The translations under genes were made by a program, and so were the position numbers. A stretch of 42,812 bases of DNA from Bacillota bacterium (GTDB lineage Bacteria > Bacillota > Clostridia > Oscillospirales > Oscillospiraceae), in the NCBI GenBank assembly GCA_023395775.1, contig JAEWYA010000244.1:1-42812 (forward strand). Reading direction: 5' to 3'. The notes beneath the pieces are model-generated. The model ran no database searches. It worked only from the letters and a program-made list of their open reading frames with translations, and was not told where the DNA came from. Below, in pieces: positions 29,644 through 42,754 of this stretch (its first letter is position 1; each line of letters opens with the position of its first letter).

Positions 29644-31752
29644 ATGCCGAGAAAAAACTCGCTTGAAAACACCCGCAATATCGGCATTATGGCCCACATT
29701 GACGCGGGCAAGACGACTACTACCGAGCGCATTCTGTTCTACACCGGCGTGAACTACAAGATCGGTGAGACCCATGACGGCACTGCCACCATGGACTGGA
29801 TGGCGCAGGAGCAGGAGCGCGGCATCACCATCACGTCCGCCGCCACGACTTGCCACTGGAAGGGGTCTAAGGACCAGTTTCCGGATACCCGCATCAATAT
29901 CATCGATACCCCGGGCCATGTGGACTTCACCGTGGAAGTGGAGCGTTCGCTGCGCGTGCTGGACGGCTCCGTAACGGTGCTGTGCGCCAAGGGCGGCGTG
30001 GAGCCCCAGTCCGAGACCGTGTGGCGTCAGGCGGATACCTACAAGGTCCCCCGCATGATCTACGTCAATAAGATGGATATCATGGGCGCGGACTACTACA
30101 ACGTTCTGCGGATGGTTGAAGAGCGTCTGAAGTGCAATGCCGTTCCCATCCAGCTCCCCATCGGAAGTGAAGACACCTTCAAGGGCATCATCGATCTGGT
30201 GGAGATGAACGCCGATGTGTACTACGACGATCTGGGCAAGGACATGCGCGTGGAGGAGATTCCCGCCGACATGCTGGACCGTGCCAAGGAGTATCGTGAA
30301 AAGCTGATGGATGCCGTTTCTATGGTGGACGAGTCCATTATGGAGGCGTATCTGGCCGGAGAGGACGTCCCCGCGGAGAAGATCCGCGCGGCCATCCGCA
30401 AGGCCACCGTGCATAACGAAATGGTCCCCGTCACCTGCGGCACGTCCTATAAAAACAAGGGCGTGCAGAAGCTGCTGGATGCCATTGTGGACTATATGCC
30501 CTCTCCCTTGGACATTCCCGCCATCAAGGGCGTGAACCCCAAGACCGACGAGGAAGAAGACCGCAAGCCCAGCGACGAAGAGCCCTTCTCCGCGCTGGCG
30601 TTCAAGATCATGACCGACCCCTATGTGGGCCGTCTGAGCTTCTTCAGGGTGTATTCCGGTCACCTGACCACCGGTTCCTCCGTGCTGAACAGCACCAAGG
30701 GCCAGAAGGAGCGCATTGGCCGCATTTTGCAGATGCACGCCAATCACCGGGAGGATATTGAAGAGGTCTATGCCGGCGATATCGAAGCCGCCGTGGGCCT
30801 GAAGAACACGACCACCGGCGATACTCTGTGCGATGAAAAGGCCCCGATCATTCTGGAGTCCATGGAGTTCCCCGACCCCGTCATCCGCGTGGCCATCGAA
30901 CCCAAGACCAAGGCCGGCCAAGAGAAAATGACCATGGCCCTGATCAAGCTGGCGGAGGAGGACCCCACCTTCAAGACCTGGACCGACGAAGAGACCGGCC
31001 AGACCATTATCGCCGGCATGGGCGAGCTGCATCTGGACATCATCGTGGACCGTATGCTCCGCGAGTTCAAAGTGGAAGCCAACGTGGGCGCGCCTCAGGT
31101 CGCCTACAAGGAGACCATCAAGAAGAAGGTCGAGCAGGACACCAAGTATGCCCGCCAGTCCGGCGGTAAGGGCCAGTACGGTCACGTCAAGATTCGTGTG
31201 GAGCCCAATGAGTCCGGCAAGGGCTATGAGTTCGTAAACGCCGTCGTGGGCGGCGCCATCCCCAAGGAGTATATCCCCGCGGTCGACGCCGGTATTCAGG
31301 GCGCCATGAACGGCGGCGTTGTCGCCGGATTCCCCGTGGTGGACGTGAAGGTCACGCTGTACGACGGCTCCTTCCACGAGGTCGACTCCTCTGAAATGGC
31401 GTTCAAGATCGCCGGCTCCATGGCGTTCAAGGAGGCTTGCCGCAAGGCTGACCCCACGCTGCTGGAACCCATTATGAAAGTCTGCGTCATCGTCCCCGAC
31501 GAGTATATGGGCGACGTCATCGGCGACTTGAACAGCCGCCGCGGTCAGATCATTCAGCTGGAGGCCCGTCCGGGCGCACAGCAGATTGACGCGCATGTGC
31601 CTCTGGCAGAGATGTTCGGCTATGCCACCGATCTTCGCTCCCGCACCCAGGGCCGCGGCCAGTATACCATGGAGCCCAGCCACTATATCGAGATCCCGAA
31701 GAACATCCGGGACAAGATCGTGGCCACCCGCAACGGGAACAAAGCGGAATAA
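29644..31752 (+). CDS. fusA: Elongation factor G
   Basis: [27 protein letters not shown] and NKMD; str operon position. Confidence 0.99.
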
Positions 31753-31852: not shown

Positions 31853-33058
31853 ATGGCTAAGCAGAAATTTGAGAGAACCAAACCCCATGTAAACATTGGT
31901 ACCATCGGTCACGTTGACCATGGCAAGACCACCCTGACTGCTGCTATCACCAAGTGGCTGTCCCTGCAGGGCAAGGCCAAGTTCGAGGCTTATGATTCCA
32001 TCGATAAGGCTCCCGAGGAGAAGGAGCGCGGAATCACGATCAACACCGCCCACGTCGAGTACGAGACCGAAAAGCGCCACTATGCCCATGTGGACTGCCC
32101 GGGCCACGCCGACTATATTAAGAACATGATCACCGGCGCTGCTCAGATGGACGGCGCTATCCTGGTCATCGCTGCTTCCGACGGCCCCATGGCCCAGACC
32201 CGCGAGCACATTCTGCTTGCCCATCAGGTCGGCGTGCCTGCAATGATCGTCTTTCTGAACAAGTGCGATCAGGTCGACGATCCCGAGCTCATTGAGCTGG
32301 TTGAGATGGAAGTGCGCGAGCTGCTGAGCAAGTACGACTATCCCGGCGATGATATCCCCATCATCAAGGGTTCTGCGCTGAACGCTCTGGTTTGCGAATC
32401 CACTGATCCCAACGCTCCCGAGTTTGCCTGCATCAAGGAGCTGATGGACGCGGTTGACGACTATATCCCCACTCCCGACCGCAAGGAGGATATGCCCTTC
32501 CTGATGCCCGTCGAGGACGTGTTCACCATCTCCGGCCGCGGCACCGTCGCTACCGGCCGTGTGGAGCGCGGTATTCTGAAGATGAGTGAGGAAATCGAGA
32601 TCGTCGGTCTGGCCGAGGAGAAGAAGAAGACCGTCGTTACCGGCATTGAGATGTTCCACAAGCTGCTGGACTACGCTGAGGCGGGCGACAACATCGGTGT
32701 TCTGCTGCGTGGTGTTGACCGCAGCGGCGTGGAGCGCGGCCAGGTTCTGGCGAAGCCCGGTTCCATTCATCCCCACACCAAGTTCAAGGGCCAGGTTTAC
32801 GTTCTGAGCAAGGACGAGGGTGGCCGTCATACTCCGTTCTTCAACAACTATCGTCCTCAGTTCTATTTCCGTACCACCGATGTCACCGGCGTCATCACTC
32901 TGCCCGAGGGCGTTGAGATGTGCATGCCCGGCGATAACGTCGAGATGAACGTTGAGCTGATCACCCCGATCGCCATTGAGAAGGGTCTGCGTTTCGCTAT
33001 CCGCGAGGGTGGACGCACCGTCGGTTCCGGCGCTGTCATTGAGATCGAGGAGAAGTAA
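31853..33058 (+). CDS. tuf: Elongation factor Tu
   Basis: [21 protein letters not shown] and GGRHTPFF. Confidence 0.99.
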
Positions 33059-33367: not shown

Positions 33368-36316
33368 TTATCCCATCAGGTATCCGTATTTGCTGTATAC
33401 GGTCAGAATCATGCACTCAATGCCCGCGGGCAGACGGTTCTCTCTGTCCAAGTCGGCTTCGAACACGCTCCCATCCAGCCGGACAAGCACCTTGCGCCCG
33501 CCCAGCGGGAGGAAACCGGAATTGGGAGTCCCGTCAAAGTCCTCCCGGCTGTGGAACAGGGTGAACTTATCCCGGTAAGGCGCGGAGTCATAGGGACAGA
33601 ACACCGCGCAGTTGCCGCACTCGTTGCACATGCGGTCCACGTGCAGAATTTCGCGCCGTCCGTCCGGCAGCTCAATGGACACGTTGGCGCGGTTGGGACA
33701 TACGTCCGCGCAGCTTTCGCATACCACGTTGCAGCTCAAGCACCGTTCGCCCTCGCATTTTGCGGATTCGCACAGGATGCCGCGTTTTGCCACCGCATCC
33801 GTCCGTGAGGCGGAAGAGCCGACGGGGAAGTTCGTCGAATGGACGGCTTTGAGTACCTCGTTTGCAAAGCCCTGGGCGTCGGCAATGCCCTCTACTACGG
33901 TGGCGGGGCCGCGCATGGCGTCGCCGCCGCAGTACACGCCGTCCAGATTTGTCTTGAAGTCGGGGGTGCCGCTGGCGTCCACCGCGATGCCATTATCTGC
34001 GAACAGCTGCGCGTCCACCTTCTCACCCACAGCAGAGATCACCGTGTCGCAGTTAATTTCCACAGTTTCGCCGGTTTCCACCGGGGTGCGCCGTCCGGAG
34101 GCATCCGGCTCTCCCAGCTTCATCCTCTTGCACAGCAGGGTTCCGTCCTTTTGTTCCACCGGGGCCACCAGCTCCAGGAACCCCACGCCGTCGGCAATGG
34201 CCAGTTCCAGCTCCTCCGCGTCTGCGGGCATGTATTTCTTTGTCCGGCGATAGATCAGGGTGGAGGATTTTGCTCCCGCCCGCAGGGCGGCGCGGGCCGC
34301 GTCCATGGCGGTGTTGCCGCCGCCCCCCACGGCCACATGGCCCAAAGACACATCTTTTCCGGCCTTCAGGTCCCTCAGCCAGCCGATGACCGGGACCACG
34401 TTGCCACTGATTGAAAGTGTACCGGCTTTCCAGGCGCCCACGGCGAAGTAAATGTGCGTGTAGCCCTGGGCCTTCAGTTCCGCCACGGAGGGCGCGGGCG
34501 CGCCGCACCGGACCTCGGCTCCCATATTCAGAACCAGCGCAATGTCTTTGTCGATGGCCTCGTCGCTGATGCGGAAGCCGGGGATCACCTGCCGGACCAC
34601 GCCGCCCAGCCGGTCTGCCTTTTCAAAAATGGTGCAGGGGACTCCTGCCCGCCCCAGAAAATACGTCGCCGCCAGGCCGGAGGGGCCGCCGCCCACGATG
34701 GCGGCTTTCACGCCGTTTTCGGCGGGAACAGGAGCTTTGAGGCCGCGCAGCACCGCGTCGTAGCCTTTTTCCGCCGCAACCAGCTTCGTGGCCCGGATCT
34801 GTACCGGGTCGTCGTAGAAATTCCGGGTGCACTTGTTCATGCAGCGATGGGCGCAGATGGTGCCGGTGATAAAGGGCAGGGGGTTCTTCTCGGTGATGAG
34901 CCGCAGGGCGTCCTCAAAACGCTCCTGACGGCACAGCTCAATGTATTCCGGAATATCCTGCCGAATGGGACAACCGCCTTCACAGGGCGCGGTGAAGCAG
35001 TCCAGCAGGGGAACCTTTTCATAGAGCTTCCGCCGGGGCAGAGGCTTAATGGCCTTCACATGGTATTGATCGCTCCGCGCCGCCAGAGACAAGGCCTCGA
35101 TCCCGTCCACATCCACGGAGGTAAACGGCTTGTAGCAGAGCTTCTCCAGCTTTTCACCGATCTGCTTGAAGCGCTGATAGCCGCCGGGCTTCAGCTCCGT
35201 GGTGGCCATGGTGATGGGCCAGATATTGCAGGCAAAAAGCTTGTCAATGTTGAAATAGTCCGCGCCGCCCGCGTAAGAGAGGCGCAGCCTCCCGCCAAAT
35301 TCTTTGGAAATGCGACTCGCCATGATGGTGGTCAGGGGGAAGAGAGATTTGCCCGCCATATACATTTCTTCGGAGGGCAGCTCCTGCCGCTTCACGTCCA
35401 CCGGGAAGGTGTTGGAGAGCTTCAGCCCGAATTCCAGACCGCTTTTGGCAGACAGCTCCATCAGCCGACGGAACATGGGCACCGCGTCGGCGTACTGCAG
35501 GTCCTCATTGAAGTGATGCTCGTCGAAAGCGATGTAGTCATAGCCCATGGAGTCCAGCACCGACCGGGCCGTCTGATAGCCCAGAATGGTGGGGTTGCAC
35601 TTCACAAAGGTGTGCAGGTGTTTTTCCGCAAGGAGATAGCTGGCGATGCGCTCAATCTCGTCCGGAGGGCAGCCGTGCAGAGTGGAGACAGTGACGCTGC
35701 GGGAGACGTGGGGCGTGATGGTGGAAATAAAGGCCTCCTCGCCGGGGAACATCTGGCGCAGAACGGAGATGCACTCCTTGAAAATGGAGGTGCGGGACGC
35801 GTCGATCATGCCGTTGAGGAAGGTGTCGATCTTCTCGCCCTTGATTCCCTCCAGATCATAGCCCACCGACATATTGAACACAAACCCGTCCGGGTCGCCC
35901 AAGCCGTATAGATGGGCCAGCATTTTGCAGGCGCACCACGCCTTCACGTATTCCTCGAATGCCTGAGGAACATACAGCTCCGTGGACCACTCGCAGTTGT
36001 AGCACTCGTCGTCTGCCAGAATGCAGGGCTTGTGAACGCAGGCGGCCAGTTCCGCGCCGTCCATCTTCTGAACGGTCTTTAGCTCGAAAAACCGCGCGCC
36101 GCCGTAATACCCGGCGATGATGTTCTGAGCCAGCTGGGTGGCGGGTCCTGCGGCGGGGCCGAAGGGAGTCTCAATTTTCTCCCCGAAAATGGGGAGGGTC
36201 TTCGTCCCAGCCTGATAGGGATGGTGGACGCCGAATACGGAGCCTTCCTTTTGATGCTCCGCGGTGATCCAGGTCATCAGTTCCCGAAAGGGAATTGGGG
36301 TCATTAATTCGCTCAT
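33368..36316 (-). CDS. ygfK: YgfK Fe-S/FAD oxidoreductase (annotated putative selenate reductase subunit; anaerobic purine/urate catabolism)
   Basis: ETPFGPAAGPATQLAQNI, FFELKTVQ, HTFVKCNPTILG and GLKLSNTFPV; GltD-like GGGPSG and GGGNTAMD; C-terminal ferredoxin Cys motifs; adjacent to ssnA. Confidence 0.95.
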   Translation of the reverse strand: MSELMTPIPFRELMTWITAEHQKEGSVFGVHHPYQAGTKTLPIFGEKIETPFGPAAGPATQLAQNIIAGYYGGARFFELKTVQKMDGAELAACVHKPCILADDECYNCEWSTELYVPQAFEEYVKAWCACKMLAHLYGLGDPDGFVFNMSVGYDLEGIKGEKIDTFLNGMIDASRTSIFKECISVLRQMFPGEEAFISTITPHVSRSVTVSTLHGCPPDEIERIASYLLAEKHLHTFVKCNPTILGYQTARSVLDSMGYDYIAFDEHHFNEDLQYADAVPMFRRLMELSAKSGLEFGLKLSNTFPVDVKRQELPSEEMYMAGKSLFPLTTIMASRISKEFGGRLRLSYAGGADYFNIDKLFACNIWPITMATTELKPGGYQRFKQIGEKLEKLCYKPFTSVDVDGIEALSLAARSDQYHVKAIKPLPRRKLYEKVPLLDCFTAPCEGGCPIRQDIPEYIELCRQERFEDALRLITEKNPLPFITGTICAHRCMNKCTRNFYDDPVQIRATKLVAAEKGYDAVLRGLKAPVPAENGVKAAIVGGGPSGLAATYFLGRAGVPCTIFEKADRLGGVVRQVIPGFRISDEAIDKDIALVLNMGAEVRCGAPAPSVAELKAQGYTHIYFAVGAWKAGTLSISGNVVPVIGWLRDLKAGKDVSLGHVAVGGGGNTAMDAARAALRAGAKSSTLIYRRTKKYMPADAEELELAIADGVGFLELVAPVEQKDGTLLCKRMKLGEPDASGRRTPVETGETVEINCDTVISAVGEKVDAQLFADNGIAVDASGTPDFKTNLDGVYCGGDAMRGPATVVEGIADAQGFANEVLKAVHSTNFPVGSSASRTDAVAKRGILCESAKCEGERCLSCNVVCESCADVCPNRANVSIELPDGRREILHVDRMCNECGNCAVFCPYDSAPYRDKFTLFHSREDFDGTPNSGFLPLGGRKVLVRLDGSVFEADLDRENRLPAGIECMILTVYSKYGYLMG

Positions 36317-36409: not shown

Positions 36410-37753
36410 TTAATAGGTTTTGTGGTTTAGCTGACCCCACAGGCGCTTCGAGCTCTCCAGCACATGGGCGTTGACCGCTTCCTCGTCCACCTCCGTCAGC
36501 ACACGGTCACGCATCAGGATTTTGCCGTCGATCATGGTGGTCTGGCACTGACGGCCCGTCATGCCGAAGAGCATGTGGCCGTCGATGTTCTCGTCGGAAA
36601 ACGGCGTATACGGCTTGTAGTCCATGACAATGACGTCCGCCGCCGCGCCGGGACGCAGAACGCCCAGCGGCGTCTCAAAGGAGCGGTTGACGATTTTTGC
36701 GTTGTTACGGAACAGCATGTCGGTGACCTCGCACCAGCCCACGTTGGGAAGGCACGCGTTGTTCCGCTGGGAGCAGAGAGCCACCTTGATAGATTCCAAC
36801 ATGTCGTTGGTATAGGCGTCTGTGCCCATCCCCACCAGAATCCCCTTCTTGTACAGCTGCAAAACGGGGGAGATGCCCACGGCATTGCCCATATTGCTCT
36901 CGGGGTTGTTGACACACATGGTGTCGGTGGCCTTGATGATGTCCATCTCGGCGGTGTTGACGTGGATGCAGTGGCCGAGAAGCGTCTTCGGTCCCAGAAT
37001 ATCGTGATCCTGCAAGCGCTGGACGGGGCGGCGGCCGTAGTTTTGCAGACTGTCGTACACGTCGTTCATACCCTCGGACACATGGATGTGGAAGCCCACC
37101 CGGCCGTTGTTGGCGGATACCATCCGGTCAAAGGTTTTGTCGGAGATGGTGAACAGGGCGTGTCCGCCGAACAGGGCCTTGAGCATATCGCTGGGGTTTT
37201 TCTCACAGTAGTCGATGAAGTCCTTGTTTTCCTGCACGGACTGGAGAGACTTCTCCTCGCCGTCCCGGTCGGAGACCTCATAGCAGAGGCAGGCCCGCAT
37301 CCCGAATTCCTTTGTGACCTCCGCAATTTTCATCAAAGAGCCGGGAATCTCGCAGAAGGAGGCGTGATGGTCAAAAATGGTGGTGACGCCCTGCTTGATG
37401 GAGTCGATCACCAAAGCCTGGGCAGAGGCCTTCGTGGCCTCCAGATCAAGATGCCGGTCAATGGCCCACCAGGTGCCGTCCAGGACCTCGTAAAAATTGG
37501 CGGGGTCATTGCCCGCGATGCTCAGGCCGCGGGCCAGAGCGGAATAGATGTGAGTATGGGCGTTGATGAGACCGGGCATGATGACACCGCCTTTGGCGTC
37601 CACAAATTCCGCCTTCGGATATTGAGCCTTCAGCTCCGCAGTGCCGCCCACGGCCACAATTTTCCCTCCGTCGGTGACCACGCCGCCGTCGGGGTAGTAG
37701 CCGGCGCCCTCCGCGTCCCGGGTAATGACCTTTCCGTTTGCCAGTAAAATCAT
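36410..37753 (-). CDS. ssnA: SsnA amidohydrolase (putative aminohydrolase)
   Basis: PGLINAHTHIYSALARG, FDHHAS, CYEVSDRDG, FHIHVSEG, NPESNMGNAVG and GTD; AGGAGG RBS before ATG 37753. Confidence 0.95.
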   Translation of the reverse strand: MILLANGKVITRDAEGAGYYPDGGVVTDGGKIVAVGGTAELKAQYPKAEFVDAKGGVIMPGLINAHTHIYSALARGLSIAGNDPANFYEVLDGTWWAIDRHLDLEATKASAQALVIDSIKQGVTTIFDHHASFCEIPGSLMKIAEVTKEFGMRACLCYEVSDRDGEEKSLQSVQENKDFIDYCEKNPSDMLKALFGGHALFTISDKTFDRMVSANNGRVGFHIHVSEGMNDVYDSLQNYGRRPVQRLQDHDILGPKTLLGHCIHVNTAEMDIIKATDTMCVNNPESNMGNAVGISPVLQLYKKGILVGMGTDAYTNDMLESIKVALCSQRNNACLPNVGWCEVTDMLFRNNAKIVNRSFETPLGVLRPGAAADVIVMDYKPYTPFSDENIDGHMLFGMTGRQCQTTMIDGKILMRDRVLTEVDEEAVNAHVLESSKRLWGQLNHKTY

Positions 37754-37804
37754 TTTAAAAACCTCCTGTCTTCCTGTCCTATTTCCATATTTTTCATGCC
37801 AAAT

Positions 37805-37914
37805 AAAAAGAAAAGGCGCTTCAAACCCTCTCCGGTTTGAAACACCCACCAAAAAATGATAGGTGTCAGCCCGTGCGCAGCAGCACTTCGTTCCAGCTAT
37901 CATTCTTTTATTGT
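37805..37914 (-). ncRNA. Riboswitch-like cis-regulatory leader with terminator/antiterminator (possibly the ssnA RNA motif)
   Basis: P1 37897-37908/37851-37862; inner stem GTGC/GCAC; terminator stem 37834-37846/37815-37827 plus TTTTCTTTTT; competing 11-bp hairpin 37857-37867/37841-37851. Confidence 0.75.
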
Positions 37915-37920
37915 GATCTT

Positions 37921-37949
37921 ATTGTATCGGACCTGTGTATAAATTGCAA
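37921..37949 (-). promoter_or_regulatory. Sigma-A promoter of ssnA-ygfK
   Basis: Minus strand TTGCAA-N17-TACAAT directly upstream of the structured leader. Confidence 0.75.
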
Positions 37950-38092
37950 GCAGGTGGGCAAAAAAATTTTTAGGTGCGGTTTTGTGAAAAACGACGAAAC
38001 AAAATTCTAAAAATTACTTGAAATATTTTTTAAACCATGTAATATAATATTAGAAATTACATTTGACGGATAACGGAAAGGAGTCAAATTTT

Positions 38093-38752
38093 ATGCGTGA
38101 TTTGGTGGCGAAAGCACAGGACCGCGTCAGCTTTGAGACACATGCTCTGGGCGCGGTGGCTGCGCTGGTTGGCTGTATCATCATGGCGGTGCGGGGCGTG
38201 GGGCTGGATGTCCCGGCCGCGACGCTGTGGGCCGCGCTGGTATTCTGCCTGTCGGCGCTGGCGCTGTACACCGCCAGCGCAGTTTACCATTACTATCCCG
38301 GCAATGAGCTTACCGCCGGAGCAAAGCGGTTTCTTCGCAAGATGGACCACAGCATGATCTATGTCCTGATCGCCGGAAGCTATACGCCGTTCGCCATGGT
38401 GATGCTGCCCCAGCCCACGGGCACCCGGTTCTGCGTAACTCTGTGGGCGGTGGCGCTGGCGGGAATTTTGATGAAGCTCATCTGGATCAACGCGCCCCGT
38501 ATTTTGTCCACGGTGATCTACCTCATCATGGGTTGGGCGGTGCTGTTTGTGGCGAAGGATTTTGCGGCCGTGGGCCAGCCCTGCATGACACTGGTGGCGC
38601 TGGGCGGTGTATGCTATTCCGTGGGCGCCGTGTTTTACGCCGTCAAAAAGCCCAGCATTTCTGCGGAGTGGACCTTCCACGAGCTGTTCCATCTGCTGAT
38701 TTTGGCGGGCTCTCTGTTCCACTATGCGGCGATCTATTTCTACGTGCTGTAA
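38093..38752 (+). CDS. Hemolysin III / PAQR (TrhA-like) membrane protein
   Basis: SFETH, LYTASAVYH, RKMDHSMIYVLIAGSYTPF and HELFHLLILAGS motifs; AAGGAG RBS. Confidence 0.93.
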   Translation: MRDLVAKAQDRVSFETHALGAVAALVGCIIMAVRGVGLDVPAATLWAALVFCLSALALYTASAVYHYYPGNELTAGAKRFLRKMDHSMIYVLIAGSYTPFAMVMLPQPTGTRFCVTLWAVALAGILMKLIWINAPRILSTVIYLIMGWAVLFVAKDFAAVGQPCMTLVALGGVCYSVGAVFYAVKKPSISAEWTFHELFHLLILAGSLFHYAAIYFYVL

Positions 38753-38866
38753 ACCTACAATCTTTGGTAATTTTAGACAAATTACCTTGCCAAATACCCC
38801 AAAATAGAATATACTATTTTCTGGCTGACCGGGTATGGATATGTATTCGGGGAAAGGCGGAAGGGT

Positions 38867-41800
38867 ATGGGCGGCAGGCGTAGAAAATCCAATACAGCAA
38901 GGCAAAGAGCGATGGGTCTATCGCTCTTTGCCCTGTTGCTATTTTTATGCGCTACTTCGGCCCGCGCCGTGGATGGCGGCCATCAGGTCCTGTACATCAG
39001 CGCCTACTCCTATGAGCTTGAAAGCGTTCCCGTTCAGCTGGATGCCGTTGCCAAAGCCCTGAGTAGCGAAGCCAGCGTAAAATATCTCTTTATGGATACC
39101 CGCAACCAGAGCGAGCGGGCGGCGTCGCAGGAGCTGTGCCGCCGGCTGGATACATGGAAGCTGCTGCCCACCATCGATGCGGTAATCGTCAGCGGCGACG
39201 CGGCGCTGCAATTTGCCATGGACTATCAGGACGAGTATTTTGCCGGGCTGCCCATCCTCTTTTTGGATGTCCGCCAGCCCCTGTTGGCTGCCACTGCCGC
39301 GCAGAACGAACTGATCTCCGGCGCTGAGAGCGCCGTGCCCTTTCGGGAGACGATCTCTCTGGCGGCGCAGCTTTATCCGAATGCCAGACAGGTGGTCTGC
39401 ATTGGAGACGGTACCGATGCGGCACGTGGAATGATGGGGACATTTTACTGTCTGGAAAGTACCTTTCCGCAGCTTGATTTTAAGAGCCTGGATCTGGGGG
39501 AGACGCCCCGAAGCGGGATTCAAAAGCTGCTGGCGGAATACGGGAGTGAGACGATCCTCATCTATGCCCAGGTGAGCCATGACGGCAGCGGAAATATATA
39601 CAGCGATCTGCAGGCGGCAGAAATGCTGACGGCAATGACTTCGCTTCCTATTTTTTCTGCCAACGCCGCAAGCCTTGGCACCGGCTTTTTGGGCGGGTGT
39701 GTGATTTCGCCGGAAGACATGGCCTATCAGGTAGGGCAGTATGCTGGCCGGATTCTGGACGGCGAGGCGTCCTCCGCGGATGTGGGTCTTTTGAAAATGC
39801 CGGTGATCACCCGGTTCGATAAGCGCGTGATGGACCGGTGCGGGATCATGCGGAGCAGTCTGCCCGGGGATACGGAATATCTCAACGACCCCGTTCGTGA
39901 CGCCGTCCTCCAATATAAGCGAGTGCTTCTTGGCGGCGTGGGCGCCTTTGCGCTGCTTATCGCGCTTCTTGCCATGCTGCTGCGGGACAACCACAGACGC
40001 AGGGCGCTGATTTGCAAGGTACAGGAGCGGGAGCGTCAGCTCCAGAATGTCATGGATCTGGTGCCGGGCGGTATTTGCTCATTTCGGGTGGACGAAGGCG
40101 ATCATTTTGAAATGATCCATTTTAACACGGCCTTTTATCAGTTGCTGGGATACCCCGCACCACCGGAGGACGAAAACGCCAATCTGCTGCAAAACATTCA
40201 CCCCGACGATCGGGAGTCCTTTGAGGAGCAGATTTGCCTTTGCCGGCAGGGCGTGGAAAATATTCAGCAGACCTTTCGGATCCTGCGGCACGACGGAGCC
40301 TATATCTGGATGTCCTTGCAGGCGTCTTTGGCACAGGAGGAAAACGGCAGCCGGACTTATTACGGCGTATTCAGCGATGTGGATGCGCTGAAGCGCCTGC
40401 AGGAGCATCTGGAGCAGGACGAGCGCACGCTGCAGACAGCCATGGACCATGCCAATGTGGACTATTGGATCTACGATCCCCAGCGGCATACCTTGCACCA
40501 GAGCAAACGTGCCTGCGAGCTGTTCGGCCTGCCGGAGGAGATGACGGATTATCCGCAGTCCTGGTTTATCCATCAGATTACCTTTGAAGAGGATGTGCCG
40601 AAGCTGCGAAAGGCGCTTGCGACAATCGACCAGGGCGGAGAACACGCCGTCTGCGAGGTGCGGGAGCATCTTCCGAACGGCAAGGAGCAATGGGTCGAGA
40701 TCAGGATGACCTCCCTGTACGACACGGAGGGAAATCGGACAAAGGTGTTCTGTACCAGTTTGGTATGCACGCAGCGCCATCGGGAGATGGAGCGGTATGA
40801 GCGGCAGAATCAGCGCATCCGGGCGCTGTTGCCCAACGCGGTGGCATCCGTTCAGATGAATCTGACGAAAAACACCTGTATACCCGGACCTTCCCTGTAT
40901 CCGGAGCTGCTGGCGGGAATTGACAGAACCGCGGACGCCGCGTTTCAGAGGATGAGGAGCCGCGCGATTACGGCAGAGCAGGCCGACGCATTCGGCGCCC
41001 GTATCAGCCGGCAGGCGATGTTGGACGCCTATGAGCGGGGTACCTCGCTGCTGACCTATGAACGGAACTGCTGGGTCAATGGAGTCCGCCGCTGGCTAAC
41101 GGTGCGGGCGGACATCACCAGAAATCCTGTTACCGGCGATGTGGAGGCAAACATTTATTCGTTTGACATCGACGACCAAAAATTCATGGAGCAGATTATG
41201 AATACTGTAATCCGCCGGGAATATCTGATGATTTTGCGGATTGACCTGACGGCGGATACCGCCCGTGTTTTTTCCTCTCAGGACGGGCAGAATTCGATTC
41301 ATGAGATCGGGCGGGCAGAGGCGTCCATTCTGGACGCCGTCCAGGACTCCTATGCGGGCGACGAACTGGGGGACACGCTGGATCGCCTGCGCTTCAAGGA
41401 AATACGCATCCAGTTGGAGAAAAACGCGGAGTATGTGGTGTATGCCGACTGCCGCAACAGCTCCGGAAACGTCCGGCGGTTGCGCTACTCCTTCGTCTGG
41501 CTGGACAGGCGCGGCAGCTTAGTCTGCTGCACCGTGACCGATGCCACAGACGTCTTTGCCAGGGAACGCCGCCGGAGTGAGGCGCTGCGTTCCGCGTTGG
41601 AGGAGGCTCGGCGGGCCAATCAGGCAAAGAGCGAGTTTCTCTCCCGCATGAGCCACGAGATACGCACGCCTATGAACGCCATACTGGGACTGACCCAGCT
41701 GGCGCGGGAGGATGCCGAAACTCCGGACGTGGTGGAAATGATGGAAAAGATTCAGGTTTCCGGCGAGTATCTGCTGGGACTCATCAACGATGTGCTTGAC

Positions 41801-42754
41801 ATGAGCCGGATTGAATCGGGTCGCATTGAGCTGCACCCTGAAAATGTGAATGTGCAGACGATGTATAAGACAATCCGGGATCTGATGCTCCCCCGCATGG
41901 AGGAAAAGCACATCCGGTTCCGGATGGATACCAGTGGGGTGACCACGCCGTATGTGGTGATCGACCGACTGCGCATCCAACAGGTGTACGTCAATATCCT
42001 GAGCAATGCCATCAAGTTTTCCGAACCGGGCTCGGAGATTTCCTGCACGGTGAGTCATGTTCCCTGCGGAGAGGACAAGATCACCAGCACCATTGTTTTC
42101 CGAGACCAAGGCTGCGGCATGAGTCAGGAATTTTTGAACCGGGTGTTCGATCCCTTTGAGCAGGAGGCCAACGGCTACCAGAACCCCCAGCTGGGTACGG
42201 GACTGGGCCTGGCCATTGTGAAAAATCTGGTGGAGCATATGGACGGCACGGTAAGCGTCAAAAGCGAGCTGGGAAAGGGCAGTGAATTTACCGTGCGGAT
42301 CACGGTGCCCAGAGGCCATCCGTTCGATGAACCCGAGAAAAAGACTCCCGAAACCGAAGCCCAGACTAGTCTGAAAGGAAAGCGGATTCTTTTGGCGGAG
42401 GATCACCCGGTCAATACGGAGATTGCAAAAAAGATGCTTTGCCGTCACGGGTTGTTGGTGGACCACGCTGAGGACGGACGGGCGGCGCTGGACTGCTATC
42501 TGAACGCGGACGCATGGCATTACGACGCAATTTTAATGGATATTCGAATGCCGGTGATGAACGGCTTTGACGCGACAAAGGCCATTCGCACCTCCGGGCG
42601 GCCCGACGCCGGGAGTATCCCTATCATCGCCATGACGGCCAACGCCTTTGAAAGCGACCGTCAGGAGACCCGCGCGGCGGGGATGAACGCGCATCTTTCC
42701 AAGCCGGTGCGGCAGGAGGAGCTGTTGAACATGCTGCGAAAATTCCTAAAATAA
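38867..42754 (+). CDS. Hybrid sensor histidine kinase/response regulator (extracellular binding-protein-like domain, PAS domains, HisKA, HATPase, REC)
   Basis: Two TM segments; PAS motifs IHPDDR and DGAYIW; H-box FLSRMSHEIRTPMNAI; NILSNAIKFS; DQGCGM; GTGLGLAI; REC motifs AEDH, ILMDIRMP and LSKP. Confidence 0.95.
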   Translation: MGGRRRKSNTARQRAMGLSLFALLLFLCATSARAVDGGHQVLYISAYSYELESVPVQLDAVAKALSSEASVKYLFMDTRNQSERAASQELCRRLDTWKLLPTIDAVIVSGDAALQFAMDYQDEYFAGLPILFLDVRQPLLAATAAQNELISGAESAVPFRETISLAAQLYPNARQVVCIGDGTDAARGMMGTFYCLESTFPQLDFKSLDLGETPRSGIQKLLAEYGSETILIYAQVSHDGSGNIYSDLQAAEMLTAMTSLPIFSANAASLGTGFLGGCVISPEDMAYQVGQYAGRILDGEASSADVGLLKMPVITRFDKRVMDRCGIMRSSLPGDTEYLNDPVRDAVLQYKRVLLGGVGAFALLIALLAMLLRDNHRRRALICKVQERERQLQNVMDLVPGGICSFRVDEGDHFEMIHFNTAFYQLLGYPAPPEDENANLLQNIHPDDRESFEEQICLCRQGVENIQQTFRILRHDGAYIWMSLQASLAQEENGSRTYYGVFSDVDALKRLQEHLEQDERTLQTAMDHANVDYWIYDPQRHTLHQSKRACELFGLPEEMTDYPQSWFIHQITFEEDVPKLRKALATIDQGGEHAVCEVREHLPNGKEQWVEIRMTSLYDTEGNRTKVFCTSLVCTQRHREMERYERQNQRIRALLPNAVASVQMNLTKNTCIPGPSLYPELLAGIDRTADAAFQRMRSRAITAEQADAFGARISRQAMLDAYERGTSLLTYERNCWVNGVRRWLTVRADITRNPVTGDVEANIYSFDIDDQKFMEQIMNTVIRREYLMILRIDLTADTARVFSSQDGQNSIHEIGRAEASILDAVQDSYAGDELGDTLDRLRFKEIRIQLEKNAEYVVYADCRNSSGNVRRLRYSFVWLDRRGSLVCCTVTDATDVFARERRRSEALRSALEEARRANQAKSEFLSRMSHEIRTPMNAILGLTQLAREDAETPDVVEMMEKIQVSGEYLLGLINDVLDMSRIESGRIELHPENVNVQTMYKTIRDLMLPRMEEKHIRFRMDTSGVTTPYVVIDRLRIQQVYVNILSNAIKFSEPGSEISCTVSHVPCGEDKITSTIVFRDQGCGMSQEFLNRVFDPFEQEANGYQNPQLGTGLGLAIVKNLVEHMDGTVSVKSELGKGSEFTVRITVPRGHPFDEPEKKTPETEAQTSLKGKRILLAEDHPVNTEIAKKMLCRHGLLVDHAEDGRAALDCYLNADAWHYDAILMDIRMPVMNGFDATKAIRTSGRPDAGSIPIIAMTANAFESDRQETRAAGMNAHLSKPVRQEELLNMLRKFLK

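Follow-up and report, generated by a model that had tools for sequence, protein, structure and literature searches.

A conserved leader hairpin of the ssnA RNA family in Oscillospiraceae and its putative role as a transcriptional ON switch for oxidised-purine degradation

The closest described relative of the leader considered here is the ssnA RNA motif (Rfam RF03031), which we take to stem from a comparative screen published by Weinberg et al. in 2017. The word “ssnA” is absent from the main text of that paper (PMC5737381). Among searchable papers, none was found on the ligand or mechanism of the motif. A 2026 preprint on “SsnA-associated non-template-strand repeats” was set aside, as it appears to concern a different system.

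The context has changed since the motif was catalogued: ssnA and ygfK, once of unknown function, are now assigned to 2,8-dioxopurine reduction and ring opening. In the available portions of two preprints, YgfK reduces 2,8-dioxopurine and SsnA then opens the six-membered ring, the two forming a coupled pair in reductive urate degradation (10.1101/2025.04.24.650524; 10.1101/2025.05.19.654654); the selectivity of YgfK for 2,8-dioxopurine is described in the first of these (10.1101/2025.04.24.650524). With this pathway step assigned, the candidate ligands of the orphan RNA are narrowed to a handful of purines. Anaerobic urate degradation by gut microbes is linked to urate levels in the host and to gout. 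In terms of expression, the accessible part of a further study places ssnA and ygfK among the strongest urate-induced genes in three distant gut bacteria, with ygfK also urate-induced in E. coli (10.1101/2022.07.24.501321). The species behind these induction data do not carry the ssnA motif.

As for RNAs linked to the same metabolites, the xanthine/urate (NMT1, or xanthine-I) riboswitch is the nearest in subject. Its authors, in the portion of their paper available to us, saw no oxidised-purine degradation genes under NMT1 control (PMC7373994).

The window, that is, the whole stretch of 42,812 nucleotides that was analysed (contig JAEWYA010000244.1 of an Oscillospiraceae genome), carries an RF03031 match in the 5' leader of ssnA, with 105 nt from the end of the motif to the ssnA ATG. 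It is the sole family above threshold across the whole window, with E = 9.1e-12 for the window and E = 4.7e-14 for the leader alone. The match covers model positions 1-48 of 48, is not truncated and has zero non-canonical pairs flagged. Both consensus helices are formed (P1 at model positions 8-12/35-39, P2 at 21-24/30-33), and the conserved internal-loop bases are all present, namely G13, A15, A16, G18 and A20 on the 5' side and G34 on the 3' side. A permissive scan of positions 37740-37960 (E<=10) gave 7 matches, all of them with E > 2 except the ssnA RNA, and no purine, xanthine-I/NMT1, ZTP or ykkC-type covariance model matched the leader even at E up to 10. The window's leader is a full member of the catalogued orphan ssnA RNA family, and the motif itself is not new. 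An earlier note, made from the sequence alone, had suggested the ssnA motif by name and had found the leader unlike purine, xanthine-I, ZTP and ykkC aptamers; it was right on both counts.

The features of the leader and its genes are collected in Table 1.

Table 1. Features of the ssnA leader and the genes behind it, in window coordinates.
Feature	Position	Strand	Basis or remark
Sigma-70-type promoter TTGCAA-N17-TACAAT	37921..37949	-	9/12 consensus matches; boxes TTGCAA 37949-37944 and TACAAT 37926-37921, 17-nt spacer
Predicted transcription start	near 37914	-	
ssnA RNA (RF03031)	37858..37906	-	52.5 bits (gathering score 37.3), full-length
Conserved sensor hairpin P1 + P2	37868..37898	-	RF03031 alignment; RNAalifold consensus of 45 leaders
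Sensor P1	AGCU 37898-37895 / GGCU 37871-37868	-	plus U37899-G37867
Sensor internal loop	37894-37887; 37872	-	8-nt GGAACGAA; single bulged G
Sensor P2	GUGC 37886-37883 / GCAC 37876-37873	-	loop 37882-37877
Outer helix P0, 5' strand AAAGAAUGAUAG	37897..37908	-	“P1” of the earlier note
Outer helix P0, 3' strand CUAUCAUUUUUU	37851..37862	-	covariation; overlaps antiterminator 5' strand
Antiterminator H2	37841..37867	-	GACACCUAUCA 37867-37857 / UGGUGGGUGUU 37851-37841; covariation, duplex energy
Intrinsic terminator	37804..37847	-	stem-loop 37847-37814; U-tract UUUCUUUUUA 37813-37804
ssnA ribosome-binding site AGGAGG	37766-37761	-	
ssnA, 447-aa amidohydrolase	36410..37753	-	NF005540 “putative aminohydrolase SsnA”, 618 bits (cut-off 444); Amidohydro_1
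ygfK, 982-aa Fe-S flavoprotein	33368..36316	-	TIGR03315 Se_ygfK, 1278.7 bits (cut-off 835.3)

Promoter-like sites are more frequent in the region than in its shuffles (4 found, 0.8 expected). By eye, a -10-like box stands at a similar distance upstream of the motif in many relatives.

The outer helix P0 has 12 bp with one G-U pair, and the antiterminator H2 has 11 bp with three. The second strand of H2 doubles as the start of the terminator 5' arm, and the duplex of H2 tail and arm reaches -8.9 kcal/mol, compared with -4.0 kcal/mol for shuffled tails (p = 0.015). The terminator stem has 14 pairs, 6 of them G-C, and runs straight into its U-tract. Both lie behind the promoter and ahead of the ssnA start codon (37753), which comes 50 nt past the U-tract. 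The minimum free energy (MFE) fold of the minus strand of 37795-37915 consists of P0 and the terminator, at -41.1 kcal/mol (z = -4.0), and none of 200 shuffles was equally stable. The layout described by the earlier note is confirmed: promoter, helices, inner hairpin, terminator and U-tract are all present where it had placed them. Its 13-bp terminator about 50 nt before ssnA was found with 14 pairs, and its 11-bp alternative hairpin, said to exclude both the terminator and the helix that it named P1, exists and shares strands with both.

In terms of genes, ygfK is the second gene of the regulated ssnA-ygfK operon, and its product contains Fer4_20 and Pyr_redox_2 domains. The divergent neighbour of the leader in the window encodes an HlyIII-family membrane protein. 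Among the assemblies of four metatranscriptome runs, one contig from a relative (X10, with 93 differences in 1,447 bases) starts at 37856, passes through the terminator and extends past 36410, and short contigs of X6-X8 lie inside ssnA. These contigs show no ends, strand or level, and the libraries may contain DNA, so they weigh neither for nor against the switch.

The ssnA RNA occurs once in the window's own genome, which is 68% complete. Of 151 genomes sampled across the order, 4 carried a match to the family model, as did 35 of 151 sampled within the family, and a scan of species genomes with a core pattern matched at least 120 stretches. After removal of 9 contig-edge matches and 7 duplicates, the leader set contained 135 sequences, two proteobacterial chance matches (L129 and L147) included. 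Among the matches listed, the leaders are nearly all from Oscillospiraceae, including Oscillibacter, Dysosmobacter, Flavonifractor, Intestinimonas, Lawsonibacter and Faecousia. Cultured carriers include Flavonifractor plautii ATCC 29863, Bengtsoniella intestinalis, Lawsonibacter faecis, Hominicoprocola fusiformis and Intestinimonas aquisgranensis.

The association of the motif with one pathway is strict. In 127 of 135 leaders the next gene is ssnA, and it is followed by ygfK in 71 of the 74 leaders with at least 1.7 kb of downstream sequence. In the other eight, ssnA is not the next gene. Two of these stand before a gene for a D-hydantoinase (HyuA-like), which acts next in the pathway. Another, L078, precedes a two-subunit reductase resembling the C-terminal half of YgfK, and L120 appears alike by its N-terminus and a tblastn match. 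The others are the two chance pattern matches and two leaders with too little downstream sequence. A hairpin with a U-tract stands before the gene in 133 of 135 leaders, the terminator finding being anchored on the SsnA N-terminus.

At least three types of expression platform are built on one and the same sensor hairpin. Type A, with about 80 leaders including the window, combines P0, the terminator and an H2 made of the tail and the start of the terminator arm. Type B (about 22 leaders) has no outer helix; there the tail copies the terminator 3' arm and pairs with the 5' arm, at -11.8 kcal/mol compared with -5.9 kcal/mol for shuffled tails (17 of 22 at p<=0.05). In type C, found in 16 leaders of at least five named genera, the terminator 5' arm is made of the 3' strands of sensor P2 and P1, and in six leaders the P2 5' strand is also part of the terminator arm. 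These terminator stems range from -16 to -44 kcal/mol and have good U-tracts; the count of 16 leaves out L079, L129, L134, L147, L078, L120 and L075, which are artefacts, chance matches or weak terminators. Lastly, the terminator abuts P1 directly in four leaders of type C0, which are uninformative on direction.

A further helix proposed for type B, termed “H-alt”, would pair the P1 3' strand and tail with a downstream AUUCGGC. It was found 24 times against 18.4 expected in a loose test, which does not exceed shuffled sequences, and in a strict test (junction-spanning, at least 7 bp) in 14 of 34 leaders, 7 of them at p<=0.05. This relay is only suggestive and is not a main argument.

Within type A, covariation was followed in two subtypes. 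In the window's subtype (17 leaders), 81% of the P0 cells are paired and three pairs have changed on both sides; for H2 the figures are 95.2% and four pairs, and for the terminator 98.7% and 7 of its 14 pairs. The sister subtype (57 leaders) gives 87.5% for P0 and 95.8% for H2, each with one pair changed on both sides, 100% for P2, also with one (C-G to U-A, in 10 leaders), and 88.7% for the seven basal pairs of the terminator, five of which changed on both sides. Outer helix, antiterminator and terminator all covary, so they are real and evolutionarily maintained. A conserved candidate aptamer was found coupled to an expression platform of mutually exclusive structures, which supports a cis-acting, riboswitch-like leader whose three helices exclude one another, ahead of anaerobic purine/urate genes. 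This much of what the earlier note had proposed is borne out by the RF03031 match, the covarying helices and the SsnA and YgfK matches.

The helix that closes the sensor was a different matter. The 12-bp helix given this role in the earlier note is our P0. Of 133 leaders, about 80 have it, and about 50, those of types B, C and C0, do not. In the RF03031 consensus, on the contrary, P1 is UAGCU/GGCUG and P2 is GUGC/GCAC, and the flanks that would form the 12-bp helix are unpaired. RNAalifold on a balanced set of 45 leaders (14 of type A, 14 of B, 14 of C and 3 of C0) returned only P1 and P2, with P1 as the 4-bp A9-U12/G35-U38 and P2 as GUGC/GCAC. The 12-bp helix is therefore not what closes the sensor across the types.

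Sensor P1 is 100% paired, and its four pairs never vary except for A or G at position 9, opposite U38 in 44 of 45 leaders. Since these pairs are invariant, covariation is unable to test P1. The internal-loop bases G13, A15, A16, G18, A20 and G34 are likewise invariant in the 45 leaders of all types; for leaders L033-L152 the invariance of the core bases and of P1 was imposed by the search pattern, and the 30 covariance-model matches carry the same core bases. In type A, G7-C40 extends P1 to 6 bp in 35 of 80 leaders, and these positions are paired in 44 of 80 compared with 27.8 expected, an association that may reflect shared ancestry. As leaders that serve one gene must all share one sensor, we take it to be the small hairpin of P1 and P2, and P0 to be part of the type-A platform. 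P0 and P1 compete, because they have U8, A9 and G10 in common.

Comparison of the window's leader with its 134 relatives suggests that it turns the genes on, not off. In type C the terminator consumes the 3' half of the sensor, so a stabilised sensor must prevent termination, which leaves ON as the sole logic there. The architectures of all three types agree on ON only if the effector stabilises P1.

For the window, the ssnA-ygfK leader would act as a transcription-attenuation switch. Its sensor would be the conserved hairpin, with a P1 of 4-5 bp, an internal loop of 8 nt and 1 nt, and a P2 of 4 bp. In the relay proposed for the window's subtype, P1 would compete with P0, P0 would sequester the H2 tail and act as an anti-antiterminator, and H2 would sequester the first bases of the terminator 5' arm. 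In the absence of the effector, P0 would form, H2 would be blocked and transcription would end around 37805-37810. An effector that stabilised the sensor would undermine P0 and free the tail for H2, with read-through into ssnA-ygfK. We infer that the effector is a small molecule that stabilises P1 and not P0, an oxidised purine of the pathway such as 2,8-dioxopurine or its precursor urate.

Modelling of type A goes partly in the same direction. In ensembles of 71 leaders cut at the terminator loop, a P1 lock of -8 kcal/mol lowered the mean probability of P0 from 0.24 to 0.03 and raised that of H2 from 0.54 to 0.77. With a lock of -12 kcal/mol, the rise of H2 exceeded 0.15 in 31 of 71 leaders, and H2 fell in 2. 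In the window's leader, H2 remained high (0.81 to 0.91) with P1 locked, and P0 went to 0. A coarser measure, mean terminator-arm capture with P1 locked, was mixed, with 7 leaders up, 15 down and 57 unchanged of 79, and was replaced by the helix-specific probabilities. Full-length equilibrium folding with a P1 or P0 bonus was also set aside, as the terminator dominates in every condition and the calculation is silent on direction. The same holds for a penalty for an unpaired terminator arm, which is positive by construction and not discriminating.

We consider it somewhat probable that the leader switches transcription on, the candidate ligands being 2,8-dioxopurine and urate. ON is preferred because it is consistent across platform types and fits the reported urate induction.

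The opposite design, a ligand-dependent OFF switch, was the reading of the earlier note. Here the 12-bp P0 would close a large-loop aptamer, and a ligand would favour P0, withhold the H2 tail and let the terminator form. Within type A such a design would be equally coherent, and the modelling cannot decide between the two. The window's subtype has the classical layout for it, as the P0 3' strand is also the H2 5' strand and both covary, and the MFE fold is the terminated form. Stabilising P0 lowered terminator-arm capture in 51 of 79 leaders (mean 0.49 to 0.23). Moreover, without any bonus H2 already beats P0 at the decision point in 52 of 71 type-A leaders; read-through would then be the modelled default, which counts against ON and suits OFF better.

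Several observations speak against this design. The leaders of types B, C and C0 lack P0 although the same gene lies downstream, and in them A9, G10, C11 and U12 remain complementary to G35-U38. In the 16 type-C leaders, where the terminator is built from the sensor 3' half, stabilising the sensor can only prevent termination. The supposed binding loop also has, on its 3' side between U38 and the P0 3' strand, a linker of variable length and sequence. As for precedent, the available portion of the NMT1 paper describes a genetic OFF switch, but one that represses genes before xanthine/urate and was not found there on oxidised-purine degradation genes (PMC7373994). In the part of the induction study at hand, urate induces ssnA and ygfK elsewhere (10.1101/2022.07.24.501321). 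With type C allowing only ON, and with this induction, we find an OFF switch unlikely, and likewise its corollary, a ligand that is a pathway product or a signal of sufficient purine, nitrogen or energy.

A protein might take the place of the ligand. The hairpin would then be the site of a trans-encoded, purine-responsive antiterminator or attenuator protein, in the manner of RAT/BglG-SacY, PyrR or TRAP. RAT hairpins overlap a terminator, and so does the type-C sensor. The sensor is also very small (8 pairs and a 9-nt loop) and near-invariant in sequence, as protein sites often are. A divergent gene for a YheO-like PAS and HTH protein adjoins 20 of 22 type-B, 3 of 3 type-C0 and 7 of 20 type-C leaders. 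The HTH domain of such proteins is, however, of DNA type, and in type A the gene lies beside just 1 of 65 leaders; the window lacks it. A search across the leaders for a conserved neighbouring protein partner gave no universal one, the commonest upstream family being present in 32 of 111 leaders, and no known RNA-binding domain was seen in the genes scanned. A protein effector is, in our judgement, quite improbable.

Least of all do we credit a leader with no specific effector, namely a constitutive or kinetically tuned attenuator that follows NTP pools or polymerase speed, or a hairpin for RNA stability or processing: the thermodynamic models do give no clear switch, but three different platforms are coupled to one invariant internal-loop hairpin, the alternative helices share strands and covary, and the motif is strictly tied to one pathway.

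Returning to the ON switch, a more specific proposal is that the ssnA motif represents a new class of riboswitch, one that senses an oxidised purine of reductive urate degradation, most plausibly 2,8-dioxopurine (isoxanthine) or urate, and switches on transcription for ring opening in gut Oscillospiraceae. We put this forward tentatively and with some doubt. If true, it would be a natural RNA sensor for a metabolite recognised only in 2025. It would also provide the activator of oxidised-purine degradation missing from what the xanthine riboswitch authors saw, as far as the available portion of their paper goes (PMC7373994). Confirmation would bring a further riboswitch class and, with it, an RNA sensor ready for use on intermediates of the urate pathway. 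The comparison of platforms predicts the ON direction, and also that the small hairpin alone, with no outer helix, would bind the ligand.

When compared with the catalogued RF03031, the window's leader has the same P1/internal-loop/P2 hairpin, the same flanks (AGAAUGAUAG ... CCUAUC), the same position upstream of ssnA and the same kind of host (Clostridia/Oscillospiraceae). The difference is that the Rfam model ends at 48 nt and leaves the flanks unpaired, whereas here flanks, antiterminator and terminator form a conserved platform.

The pbuE/ydhL adenine riboswitch is the textbook transcriptional ON switch for purines. Type-C ssnA leaders resemble it, as the terminator 5' arm is the 3' half of the aptamer and a ligand-locked aptamer would prevent termination. 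The two differ in that pbuE/ydhL is a three-way junction and the ssnA sensor a single hairpin with an internal loop. In the window's subtype, unlike pbuE/ydhL, an anti-antiterminator and an antiterminator are inserted between sensor and terminator. Variants of the guanine-I family reported for xanthine and 8-oxoguanine (PMC9295807, PMC10556655) have in common with the proposed switch the sensing of purine derivatives in Firmicutes, although the purine riboswitch family gave no match to the leader even at E<=10.

Finally, NMT1 is, like the ssnA leader, a small RNA with a conserved core and a link to purine oxidation and degradation, as far as the accessible part of its description goes (PMC7373994). 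Oxidised purines are plausible ligands here too. The permissive scan gave no match between the two in sequence or structure. NMT1 is, within the same part of that source, a translational OFF switch that almost never uses terminators and sits on genes acting before xanthine and urate (PMC7373994). The ssnA leader, on the contrary, has an intrinsic terminator, stands before degradation genes and is probably an ON switch.

In some genomes the ssnA RNA motif (Rfam RF03031) occurs twice, with one copy preceding ssnA. Such pairs of motif-bearing loci are L074 with L128 (both from one Intestinimonas MAG), L120 with L144 (likewise both from one Intestinimonas MAG) and L002 with L005 (both from genome G126). 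The second copy in L074 and L005 lies upstream of a D-hydantoinase (HyuA-like; TIGR02033, 552 and 539 bits), and the L120 motif probably precedes genes for an NfnA/GltD-like reductase with two subunits, as found by scanning L078. The regulon therefore extends past ssnA-ygfK, inside the same pathway. Downstream of the motif-controlled hydantoinase of L074 are the genes for a MobA-like NTP transferase and a deaminase; both would fit a cluster for purine catabolism that is larger still.

In the window, no other purine genes adjoin the ssnA-ygfK pair. Elongation factor Tu and a candidate EF-G are nearby, and thus the pair has housekeeping genes next to it. On the other side, the ssnA leader has a divergent membrane protein gene as its neighbour. 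An overlapping minus-strand ORF is without Pfam match and is probably not a gene. As for the hybrid histidine kinase, the neighbour comparison found no tie to the ssnA operon in other motif loci.

Features in the window and in two related motif-bearing loci
Feature	Location	Strand	Remarks
702-aa ORF	window 29644-31752	+	just upstream of Elongation factor Tu; candidate EF-G by size and position
Elongation factor Tu	window 31853-33058	+	convergent with ygfK
Promoter-like site, HlyIII gene side	window 38018-38045	+	promoter scan
Haemolysin-III-family (HlyIII) membrane protein	window 38063-38752	+	PF03006, 142.8 bits
ORF overlapping HlyIII gene	window 38084-38905	-	
Hybrid histidine kinase	window 38867-42754	+	1295 aa; several PAS, HisKA, HATPase_c, C-terminal receiver domain
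YheO-like regulator (example)	L126:455-1243	+	PAS plus HTH_22
Deaminase	L074:2413-3171	-	cytidine/dCMP-deaminase fold
MobA-like NTP transferase	L074:3219-3896	-	molybdenum-cofactor nucleotidyl-transferase type

Part of the loci L002 to L152 have a divergent gene for a YheO-like PAS plus HTH_22 regulator upstream of the motif. By neighbour counts, it adjoins 20 of the 22 type-B leaders (without outer helix), 3/3 of type C0 (terminator abutting P1), 7/20 of type C (terminator 5' arm made from the sensor hairpin) and only 1/65 of type A, the window's type. Its presence follows the type of expression platform. This association may be a lineage effect, or leaders without the outer helix may be under an additional layer of control that acts through a protein.

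A further variation is the leader of L116 (Subdoligranulum MAG), in which no terminator was found. Here a GGAGG ribosome-binding site starts approximately 14 nt past the motif and ssnA itself begins 27 nt past the core; this leader may be a translation-controlling version of the switch.

Lastly, model positions 7 and 40 co-vary in type-A leaders (G-C in 35, A-U in 7), being paired in 44 of 80 against 27.8 expected. In that type-A subgroup, this pair lengthens Rfam's P1 by one pair past the published consensus.
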